Below the pieces are notes generated by a model. That model worked only from the letters and a program-made list of their open reading frames with translations. It was not told the origin of the DNA and made no database searches. Source: an uncultured Actinomycetes bacterium (lineage in GTDB: Bacteria > Actinomycetota > Thermoleophilia > Gaiellales > Gaiellaceae). Taken from it: DNA of 64,000 nucleotides. Made by a program: the position numbers and the translations under genes. Shown here in pieces: positions 60,193 to 64,000 of the stretch; the stretch's first letter is position 1; the number at the start of each line of letters is the position of its first letter. The stretch is taken from positions 14,694-78,693 of the forward strand of contig CAWIMQ010000003.1 of NCBI GenBank assembly GCA_963837265.1. Reading direction: 5' to 3'.

Positions 60193-63100
60193 GCCAGCCC
60201 GTCGTCGAGGACCGCATCTCGAGACCCACAGGGCGCCGGCGAGACCTACTCGTTCCCGCTCTCGTTCGCGCAGCGGCGCCTCTGGTTCTTGCACCGGCTC
60301 GAGCCCGGCTCGGCCTACAACGTCCCGCTGCCGCGCCGGCTGCGCGGGGCGCTCGACGTCGGCGCGCTGGAGCGGGCGCTGACCGAGATCGTCGCTCGGC
60401 ACGAGACCCTGCGGACGACCTTCGGAGAGAACGACGGGGTCCCGTTCCAGCTCGTGCACCCGCCCCGGGCGGAGGAACTCGAGATCGTCGACATCAGCGT
60501 CGAGCCCGACCCGGAGTCGGAGATGGAGCGCCTGGTCGCGGAGCAGGCGCTGGCGCCGTTCGATCTCGCCGCCGGGCCGCCGCGTCGGACGGTGCTCCTG
60601 CGTCTCGCCCCCAGGACCACGTCCTCGCGCTGACGCTTCACCACATCGTCTGCGACGGCTGGTCGGTCAGCGTGCTCTTCCGCGAGCTGGGCGCGCCCGA
60701 CACCGAGTTCACGGGCGGGCCGGCTGCCCGCCTGCCCGAGCTCGCGATCCAGTACGCGGACTATGCGGTCCACCAGCAGGAGTGGATGCAGGGCGATCTG
60801 CGACAGCGGCAGTTGGACTACTGGCGCGCGCACCTCGAAGACGCGCCGACGGCGCTCGACCTCCCCACCGACCACCCCCGCCCGGCCGTCCAGACCGCCG
60901 ACGGGGGCCACGTCCTCAGAAGTCCTGCCGCCCGAGCTGCTCGAGCGGCTGAAGGCGCTCAGCCGGGAGCACGGGTCGACCCTCTTCATGACGCTCCTCG
61001 CCGGTTTCTCGGTCCTGCTCGGCCGCTACTCGCGCCAGCGCGAGCTGCTCGTGGGCGCGCCGGTCGCGAACAGGCATCGCGTGGAGCTCGAAGGCCAGAT
61101 CGGCTTTCTCACGAACACGCTCGTCCTCCGGCTCGACGCCTCCGGCGAGGCCGGGTTCCGCGATCTGCTCGCGTCGGTCCGCGAGACCGTGCTCGAAGCC
61201 GAGGCGCACCAGGATCTCCCCTTCGAGCTGCTCGTCGAGGAGTTGAACCCGCCGCGCGACCGGAGCCGCGCGCCGCTGTTCCAGGTCATGTTCTCGTTCT
61301 ACAGACACGCCCGAGGCCGGCGCGTGGAGCTGCCCGGGCTCACGGTCACGGGCGTCCGTCTCGGTGGGCGACGACGAAGTTCAACCTGTCGCTCTTCATG
61401 CGGGAGTCGCCGGAGGGGCTGCGCGCGACGTTCGAGTACAGCACCGACCTGTTCGACCGCGTGACGATCGAGCGGATGGCGGGCCATTTCGAGACCCTGC
61501 TTCGGGCCCTGGTCGACGACCCCGCCCGGCCGATCGACGACGCGGAGATCGTCGGCGAGGACGAGCGACGGCTGGTGCTGACCGAGTGGAACGAGACGGA
61601 GCGGCCGTACCCGGCGCAGCGGGTCGACGAGCTGATCGCGGCGCAGGCGGCCGCGACGCCCGGGGCCGTCGCGGTCGAGGACAGCGGGCAGCGACTGACG
61701 TACGCCGAGCTGGACGAGCGGTCGAGCCGGCTCGCGAACCGTCTGCGGCAGCTCGGCATCGGCCCCGACCGCCTGGTCGGCCTCTGCGTCGACCGGACGG
61801 CGGGAGCTCCTGGTCGCCGTCCTTGGGATCCTCAAGGCGGGTGGAGCCTACGTCCCCCTCGATCCCGGCTATCCCGCCGGGCGGCTCGCCTTCATGCTGG
61901 AGGACTCGCAGGCGTCGGTCGTCGTCACGCAGGAGCGCCTCCTCCCCGTCATCCCGCAGACTGCGGCCCAGGTCGTGTGCCTCGACCGCGATTGGGCGGA
62001 GCTCGCCGGTCTCCCGGCCGAGGCGCCCGTGAGCGGACCGGACACTCGGAGCAGCCCGCCGTACGTCGATCTACACCTCGGGCTCGACCGGCACGCCGAA
62101 GGGCGTCGAGGTCGCCGCACCGCGGCGCTGGTCGAACCTCCTCGCGTCGATGCGGCAGGAGCCGGGCATCGCGGCCGGCGACGTGCTGCTCGCGGTCACC
62201 ACGCTGTCGTTCGACATCGCCGCGGTCTGGAGCTGTACCTGCCGCTCGATCACCGGCGCGCCGCGTCGTGCGTCGCGCCAGCGGACGCGGCGGCCGACGC
62301 GCGCTGGCCGAGCTGCTCGACGCCATCGCGCGCGACGGTCATGCAGGCGACGCCCGCGACCTGGCGGATGCTGCTCGACGCCGGCTGGGCCGGCCGCGCC
62401 GGGCTGAAGGTGCTCTGCCGGCGGCGAGGCGCTGCACGCCGGAGCTGGCCGACGCCGCTGCCGCGACCCGGCGTGCGGCTGCTCTGGAACATGTACGGCC
62501 CGACCGAGACGACGGTCTGCGTCGACGCCGCGCACGGTCGCGACGCGGGCAGGCCCGCGACGATCGGCCGGCCGATCGCCAACACGACGCTCTACGTGCT
62601 CGACGCGCGGCTGCGGCCTGCTGCCGATCGGCGTGCCGGCGAGCTGTACATCGGCGGCGCCGGCGTCGCCCGCGGCTACCTCGGCCGGCCCGAGCTGACC
62701 GCCGAGCGTTCGTCGCCGGACCCGTTCGCGCGACGCCCGGACGCGCGGCTCTACCGCACCGGCGACCTCGCGCGCTGCCGCGCCGACGGCGACTCGAGTT
62801 CCTCGGCCGCGCTCGACCACCAGGTCAAGATGCGCGGCTACCGCATCGAGCTCGGCGAGATCGAGGCGCGCTCGCCGCGACACGGCGCGTCCGCGAGGCC
62901 GCCGTCGTCGCCCGCGAGGACGGCACGGCGCAGCAGCCGGCTCGTCGCCTACGTCGTGCCCGTCGCCGCGCCCGGTCCGGCCGCCGGGCCGAGCTGCGCG
63001 CGCTACTTGCGCGGACGCTGCCCGACTACATGGTCCCCGCGGCGTTCGTCGTGCTCGAGCGCTCCCGCTGCACCCCGAACGGCAAGCTCGACCGGAACGC

Positions 63101-64000
63101 GCTGCCGGATCCCGGACACGAGTCGCTCGGCCTCGTCCACCCTCGGCCGCCGGCGGACGAGCACGGAGGAGGCATCCTCGAGATCTGGCAGCGGGTGCTC
63201 GGCATCCAGGAGCCGATCGGCGTCGACGACGACTTCTTCGCGCTCGGCGGCCACTCGCTCCTCGCCGTGAGGCTGATCGCCGAGGTCGAGCGTGTCTTCC
63301 GGGTGAGGCTGCCCCTGACCGTGCTCTTCGAGCAGGCGACCGTCCGCCACGTCGCAGGCGCGCTCGAGGCCGGCGGGAAGCTCGGCTGCCTGGTCGCCGA
63401 TCGTTCCGCTCAGGCCGGGCGCATCCCGGCCGCCGCTCTTCCTGCTGCACGGAATCGACGGCGAGCTGCTCTTCTACCGCGACCTCGTCCGGAGCCTCGA
63501 TCCCGACCAGCCGGTGTACGGAGTCCAGGGAGTCGGCCTCGACGGACGGCGCCCCTATACGCGCCTGGAGGACATGGCCGCCCATCACGTCGACGAGCTC
63601 GTCCGCTTCCAGCCGGAGGGGCCTCTGCTTCTCTGCGGCTACTGCTTCTCCGGGGTGCTCGCCTACGAGGTCGCGAGGCAGCTGCACGAGCGGGGCCGGG
63701 AGCCTGCGTTCCTCGGCCTCGTCGACGCATACCCGTTCGGGCATGCGCCGACGCGGACCCGGGTGGAGCTCGAGCGCGTGAAGCTCGCCGACTTCCGGTC
63801 GCGCGACCTGCGCGGGAAGATCGCGTGGATCCGGCGGCGGGGACGCGGCCTCGTCGGCAAGGTCGCCACGGAGATCCGCTGGGCGCTCTACGACCAGCTC
63901 GCCAGGCGGGGCCGTCGCGTCCCGCGGGCCCTGTGGAACATGCAGGGCGCCGGCCACCGCGCCGCGTTCCGGTACGTCGCTCCCGCTGCCCCCTGGAAGG
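60189..64000 (+). pseudogene. Terminal NRPS module, C-A(Gly-like)-T-TE; runs off the right edge; many frame changes before ~63430
   Basis: - C domain: FPLSFAQRRLWFLHRLEPGSAYNVP, HHIVCDGWS.
- A domain: TTLSFDIAAV.ELYLPL, MQATPATWRMLLDAGW, WNMYGPTETTVC; code about DIVQLGMVCK.
- T domain: FFALGGHSLLA.
- TE domain: uninterrupted from about 63430 to the window end; PPLFLLHGIDGE.., ..LLLCGYCFSGVLAYEVARQL... Confidence 0.75.

Follow-up and report, generated by a model that had tools for sequence, protein, structure and literature searches.

Two type I NRPS thioesterases with a predicted cysteine nucleophile in an uncultured Gaiellaceae bacterium

Two NRPS genes ending in thioesterase domains

The window, which is the whole stretch of 64,000 nucleotides analysed here from contig C3 of the source genome (G000, an uncultured Gaiellaceae bacterium), carries two NRPS genes in which a thioesterase (TE) lies C-terminal to a carrier domain, as read from full-length frameshift-aware alignments. 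The gene at the right edge of the window has the layout C-A-T-TE and ends in the domain called TE1, and the minus-strand gene has the layout x-A-T-TE and ends in TE2 (Table 1). The frame of TE1 is open for 315 codons (window 63319-64266) and extends beyond the window end; its motif text is PEGPLLLCGYCFSGVLAYEVARQL, and its translation reads, in order, PPLFLLHGIDGE ... PEGPLLLCGYCFSGVLAYEVARQLHERGREPAFLGLVDAYP ... DDIRHDNLVREPNV. Pfam PF00975 (Thioesterase) matches TE1 with an E-value of 2.7e-25 (90.3 bits, cut-off 26.4). For TE2, the earlier note had read a Cys codon at 34809-34807 of the minus strand; a TGC is found there, within REGPYHIAGYCFGAIVAFDMAHRL, giving G-Y-C-F-G-A, and this elbow stretch matches PF00975 with an E-value of 8e-9 (36.4 bits).

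Table 1. Features of the two TE genes and of the genes to the right of the window (positions in window numbering)
Feature	Position	Strand	Basis
x-A-T-TE gene (~170 aa without recognised domain, then adenylation, carrier, TE)	34243..37482	-	alignment to the paralogue at C6:140531-143743
TE2 thioesterase domain	34243..35070	-	PF00975 on pieces; 7CRN match; model of paralogue
TE2 predicted nucleophile Cys, TGC	34807..34809	-	GYCFG[TASG] in ~90/90 family members
TE2 Asn at +27, AAC (MFNGPSP), usual site of the triad Asp	34725..34727	-	F-N-G-P invariant in alignment A2
TE2 Asp-Asp, GAC GAT (LYDDP), loop after predicted beta7; candidate alternative acid, 'position II'	34375..34380	-	conserved Glu/Asp pair
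TE2 candidate catalytic His, CAC (VPGPH)	34312..34314	-	His in ~87% of family
C-A-T-TE termination-module gene	60208..64000, on to ~64223 past the window	+	frameshift-aware alignment to P0011 and P0005
TE1 thioesterase domain	63388..64000, same frame on to ~64150	+	PF00975; AB3403 match; AlphaFold2 model; fold matches
TE1 predicted catalytic nucleophile Cys85, TGC, in G-Y-C-F-S-G	63643..63645	+	solved-structure alignment; model; Cys in 34/34 of clade
TE1 predicted triad acid Asp112, GAC, +27, 'position I' (LVDAYP)	63724..63726	+	same column as the Asp in EntF (LLDTWP) and AB3403
TE1 predicted partner His244 (IRHDN)	~64120-64122, just past the window	+	alignment A1
TauD-family dioxygenase gene, 6 single-base frame breaks	64416-65454 (G000:C3:79109-80147), right of the window		67% identical to the Pfam TauD protein of L028
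Intact diaminobutyrate-2-oxoglutarate transaminase gene	65493-66821 (G000:C3:80186-81514), after TauD		TIGR00709, 438 bits (cut-off 402)

Both genes are frame-broken as assembled. They were aligned with intact proteins by our own frameshift-aware dynamic programming; plain tblastn with the paralogue gave overlapping wrong-frame matches in this DNA of 71% GC. The TE1 gene matches two intact proteins over its full length, P0011 (1327 aa, 54.5% identity) and P0005 (1347 aa, 52%), with 15-17 single-base shifts spread over three frames (9 bases missing and 8 extra against P0011) and no in-frame stop. The earlier note had placed the TE1 Cys codon at 63643-63645 in an uninterrupted frame: the position is right, and the frame holds for the TE1 domain itself, but shifts near 63387 (the T/TE junction) and near 64150 put this domain out of frame with the T domain before it and with the C-terminal tail after it. 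The TE2 gene (37482-34243) covers residues 6-1058 of an intact paralogue of 1070 aa, with 58.5% identity, about 30 single-base shifts and no stop in the matched codons, so that the description of this gene as a remnant has to be given up, since it is not truncated.

To the right of the window, the TE1 gene is directly followed by the TauD-family gene; NCBIfam gave no match for its two fragments, and its identity was taken from the TauD protein of L028. The gene is a candidate hydroxylase for the interface-domain Asp modules of the cluster. L028 (ENA ERZ25039534 contig_47686, 52359-75370) is a syntenic cluster from another metagenome, which contains a PPTase, TauD, a class III aminotransferase, several C-A-T genes, an FkbM-type methyltransferase module and a C-A-T-TE gene whose TE is in frame and reads GYCFSG. 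Split NRPS genes are present in L028 as well, namely a 176-aa C fragment before a 1003-aa gene, and a pair of 629 and 363 aa. Within the source genome, a second NRPS cluster at C6:95000-153500 is a largely frame-intact paralogue of the window cluster (40-58% identity) with the same two-terminator layout, comprising an x-A-T-TE gene (140531-143743) and a C-A-T-TE gene (149310-153407), both of the Cys type. In addition, a third Cys-TE protein of 884 aa, consisting of an acyl-CoA-synthetase-like A domain, T and TE (GFCLGG), is encoded beyond the window at G000:C3:95343-97997 (minus strand), and at least six congeneric genomes encode proteins of this kind, of ~880 aa.

The nucleophile elbow and its partner residues

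In a search of solved structures, AB3403 (4ZXH) was the top sequence match of TE1 (5.9e-18), and in the alignments the Cys of TE1 falls on a Ser in EntF (GYSLGG) and on a Cys in AB3403 (GWCFGG). In the AlphaFold2 model of TE1 (pLDDT 87.9, pTM 0.83), Cys85 sits between strand 80-84 and helix 86-100, which is the nucleophile elbow, Asp112 immediately follows strand 107-111, and His244 lies downstream of strand 232-239. The top Foldseek matches of this model are Skyxy-TE, AB3403, NocB, EntF and Pks13; for both this model and that of the TE2 paralogue the matches are type I TEs, also including FAS-TE and Vlm2. The column of Asp112 is near-invariant in alignment A1 of TE1 relatives, and an acid after beta7 is not conserved there. 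The earlier note had asked for the His and Asp to be confirmed once the sequence to the right of the window was at hand, and with that sequence TE1 shows the AB3403/MacB-type layout of C85, D112 (+27) and H244 after the last strand. TE1 also carries a Ser in place of the last Gly of G-x-Nu-x-G. Alignment and modelled fold together confirm Cys85 as the predicted nucleophile of TE1, on a type I TE elbow.

The Cys of TE2 is located in a 32-codon piece bounded by frameshifts. When the gene is read through these, the Cys aligns with the Ser of Skyxy-TE (PDB 7CRN), the best solved-structure match of TE2 (7e-24). The AlphaFold model of the TE of the intact in-genome paralogue (pLDDT 89.1) has Cys89 between strand 83-88 and helix 91-104, the same placement as in TE1, and the candidate His follows strand 252-257. 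The Cys is therefore confirmed, by alignment and by the model of the paralogue, as the predicted nucleophile of TE2 on a type I TE elbow as well. The earlier claim that Cys occupies the Ser position of the GxSxG elbow in both TEs is thus borne out by the solved-structure alignments and the two AlphaFold models.

TE2 departs from the arrangement of Cys, Asp at +27 and His in that its residue at +27 (position I) is Asn, invariant in the family. The His (PGxH) that follows beta8 is present in ~87% of family members, the column holding another residue in ~13%, and a Glu/Asp pair, LY[ED]DP, is conserved after predicted beta7. To judge from these residues, TE2 would work like a Cys-TE but appears to be a distinct variant of it, which probably uses a Cys-His pair whose orientation is set by the Asn, in the manner of papain-type enzymes, or else by the Glu/Asp after beta7. 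A further and rather doubtful proposal is that TE2 stands for an undescribed catalytic variant of type I TEs, with an invariant Cys and an Asn fixed at the Asp site (a papain-like Cys-His-Asn arrangement, or one with the post-beta7 Glu/Asp), borne on a Gly-loading x-A-T-TE protein that is common to many Solirubrobacterales-like genomes, and with release or transfer chemistry that may be unlike that of both ordinary TEs and ObiF1/SulM. Among the features of the two domains, this proposed Asn-bearing catalytic arrangement of TE2 alone extends what is known from described systems.

Cysteine in the wider thioesterase family

With HMMER, 1.84 billion cluster representatives were searched exhaustively, and 18,351 proteins matched at E<=1e-10. 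Among 188 TE domains in the best 150 of these 18,351 proteins, 96 have Cys in the nucleophile column and 81 have Ser. In a FastTree phylogeny of 136 near-full-length TE domains, TE1 belongs to a clade of 34 cluster representatives (support 97), all of which carry Cys, and the next clade outward is also entirely Cys (40/40, support 93). Of the 34 members of the TE1 clade, 31 have the Asp and at least 30 the His. A minimum of 13 switches between Cys and Ser is needed to account for the tree, so the nucleophile residue has changed often in the family. TE2 is placed elsewhere in relation to TE1 and groups with the paralogue from its own genome. The relation of ObiF1, SulM, MacB and AB3403 to the two TEs is taken from solved-structure searches and the cited papers, not from this tree.

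The family of TE2 was collected by a word-index search with the in-genome paralogue, which gave 278 relatives. Of the best 120, ~90 gave usable alignments, and all of these show the motif GYCFG[TASG]; alignment A2 likewise has Cys throughout this column. To go by their record names, the nearest protein relatives would be Solirubrobacteraceae or Solirubrobacterales. In the source genome itself, all five type I TEs carry Cys (GYCFSG, GFCFSG, GYCFGA, GYCFGT and GFCLGG), and its type II TE carries Ser (GHSFGG). Cys was also found in seven of nine TE matches in related genomes; no close TE1 orthologue was found in 60 related genomes, the best match being 42% identical. Across many phyla, a sample of 79 TEs from species-representative genomes, picked by a helix motif downstream of the nucleophile with the nucleophile excluded from the motif, contained 28 TEs with Cys and 51 with Ser, and 27 of the 28 Cys-TEs have Asp at +27.

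Cys-TEs make up ~2% of characterised enzymes (PMC13288461), and this figure describes characterised enzymes, not this TE family in nature, in which the share of Cys in genomes is 35-50%. The earlier statement that Cys-TEs are uncommon is correct for the former and fails for the latter. Cys-TEs have been called rare because few were studied; here Cys is the norm for whole clades and is found in a third to half of the family. On the sequence comparisons, Cys appears as the inherited norm in two separate clades, that of TE1 and that of TE2. The earlier note had also allowed that the whole subfamily might use the Cys motif routinely without special chemistry, and in the half of this that could be tested routine use is what was found (34/34, ~90/90 and 5/5 in the genome). 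Since Cys is the norm for whole clades, the Cys motif alone is no flag for beta-lactone or beta-lactam products.

Alignment A1 also includes a set of stand-alone T-TE proteins (P0160, P0162, P0163, P0165 and P0167) that show GYCGGG at the elbow and lack a His where one is usual (LYPATxLVEPYV); they are Cys-TEs with the catalytic His missing. The listed neighbours of this set include Acidobacteriota and Terriglobales names.

Release chemistry and the state of the genes

Several described Cys-TEs serve for comparison. In ObiF1 (beta-lactone) and SulM (monobactam) the Cys is accompanied by an Asp that is relocated to a later strand (position II); both enzymes cluster with type II TEs, and a Gln-Cys-Asn motif is present in SulM (PMC6668435, PMC11298585). 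AB3403 has Cys with Asp at the ordinary position I (PMC11298585), and its product and release chemistry are themselves unknown (PMC10510592). The triad of MacB-TE is Cys89/Asp116/His218; this enzyme is a macrolactam cyclase, and its Cys is required for cyclisation (PMC13288461). Like TE1, AB3403 (Acinetobacter baumannii, PDB 4ZXH/4ZXI) has Cys (GWCFGG), Asp at +27 and the layout C-A-T-TE, and it ranks third among the fold matches of TE1 and sixth among those of the TE2 paralogue; it differs from the two TEs in that identity is ~24-40%, its second Gly is replaced by Ser in TE1 (GYCFSG), and its Asp position is Asn in TE2. MacB-TE and PmxB-TE, of the macolacin and polymyxin synthetases, share the +27 spacing with TE1 (Cys85/Asp112/His244), a likeness drawn from published residues, not from an alignment. 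The TE1 gene is adjoined by a diaminobutyrate transaminase gene, as would be expected of a Dab-using pathway. The hosts of MacB-TE and PmxB-TE are Paenibacillus, unlike the source organism. Skyxy-TE (PDB 7CRN/7DXO) and the TE of EntF have the lid-bearing type I TE fold and are best or near-best sequence and fold matches of TE1 and TE2; they share the Asp at +27 with TE1 and differ from both TEs in having a Ser nucleophile.

To judge from the family, the peptidyl chain on the carrier-domain phosphopantetheine would be passed to the Cys thiolate by transthioesterification, with His activating the Cys, and the acyl-S-enzyme thioester would then be attacked either by water or by an internal nucleophile (amine or hydroxyl), so that the product is linear or macrocyclic. 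TE1 probably acts as an AB3403/MacB-type Cys-Asp(+27)-His enzyme that closes the C-A-T-TE module, and TE2 as the terminus of a Gly-loading x-A-T-TE protein; we infer release by hydrolysis or cyclisation for both from their family. The A-domain code before TE2, and also in the paralogue, is DILQLGMIWK, with positions assigned from motif landmarks, and this is a published Gly signature (PMC12283262). Before TE1 the code is DI[V/L]QLGMVCK, Gly-like but unassigned, read across frame breaks with positions again from motif landmarks. Four-membered-ring release finds no support in these codes, because a C-terminal Gly offers no beta nucleophile.

The earlier note had linked Cys-TEs to strained rings, and the Cys might accordingly mark beta-lactone- or beta-lactam-forming TEs of the ObiF1/SulM kind, a reading that we consider very improbable. 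Both TEs do share the Cys nucleophile with ObiF1 and SulM, and in TE2 the residue at position I is not Asp, while a Glu/Asp is conserved downstream of beta7, the site of the acid in ObiF1/SulM (PMC6668435). TE1, however, has its Asp at position I (+27), as do EntF and AB3403, and not at position II; MacB-TE, with the same spacing, makes an ordinary macrolactam (PMC13288461). Because the Asp of ObiF1 and SulM sits elsewhere and these enzymes group with type II TEs, the link to strained rings does not transfer to TE1. Moreover, ObiF1 and SulM gave no sequence matches to either TE at E<=0.01 among solved structures and were not in the top 50 fold matches of the TE1 model or of the TE2-paralogue model, the Gln-Cys-Asn motif is absent from TE1 and TE2 (both are Tyr-Cys-Phe), the TE2 module reads as Gly, without a beta nucleophile, and the occurrence of Cys in whole clades argues against special chemistry for each member. 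Still harder to credit is that the true nucleophile of TE1 is Ser87, the downstream Ser of GYCFSG that the earlier note had named as an alternative, or that the TGC is a Ser codon with one miscalled base. A Ser does lie two residues past the Cys, and TCC is one substitution from TGC, but Ser87 is in the first turn of the helix, at the second-Gly position of GxSxG, where 158 of 188 related domains have Gly, and Cys is present in all 34 clade members, the syntenic orthologue included. For TE1 and TE2 alike, chance or base-calling error was dismissed since every close relative carries Cys.

The Cys in these domains thus appears, from its distribution among relatives, to be an inherited variant of a known, under-studied enzyme type, not a sign of unusual ring-forming chemistry. 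The intact C6 paralogues and the syntenic metagenome cluster provide testable Cys-TEs of two kinds, Asp-bearing and Asn-bearing. Taken together, it is probable that TE1 and TE2 are true type I NRPS thioesterases that use a Cys nucleophile and belong to separate all-Cys clades, with no sign of four-membered-ring release and with frame breaks that are most likely consensus indel errors.

As for the frame breaks by themselves, consensus indel errors of the contig are the favoured account and real decay has the smaller share, since the breaks are single-base and come without nonsense codons or deletions. The competing account, in which both genes are pseudogenes in a decaying, redundant NRPS cluster and the Cys residues have no present function, is possible though less probable; if decay is real, the TE1 and TE2 domains would not be made. 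It draws on the number of breaks (~17 and ~30), on the intact paralogous two-TE cluster on C6, and on a codon-usage Viterbi scan in which contig C3 has ~62 frameshift candidates per 100 kb and other contigs have 3-13. Broken and intact genes also lie side by side: the breaks are patchy at kilobase scale, with 6 in the TauD gene and none in 1.3 kb of the adjacent aminotransferase gene. Against decay, each break is a single base, nonsense codons and large deletions are absent, homology is full-length at 52-58% identity, insertions are as common as deletions or commoner, and the related metagenome contig also has split NRPS genes. Neither GC content nor G/C homopolymer density explains which genes are broken, and rpoB is intact. 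Alternation of +1 and -1 shifts was only marginally non-random in the TE1 gene (12/16), and the TE2 gene is without such a pattern, so it was given no weight.

The public gene call at window 63431-64000 (protein P0004) is an orphan ORF of 250 aa whose start lies within the TE domain, so the source annotation also treats the NRPS gene as broken. In the codon-usage scan, frameshift candidates were also seen as islands with 13-26 of them in 20 kb, where the background is 0-2; these islands are located at C2:560000-580000, C2:340000-360000, C1:520000-540000, C1:80000-100000 and over all of C3.
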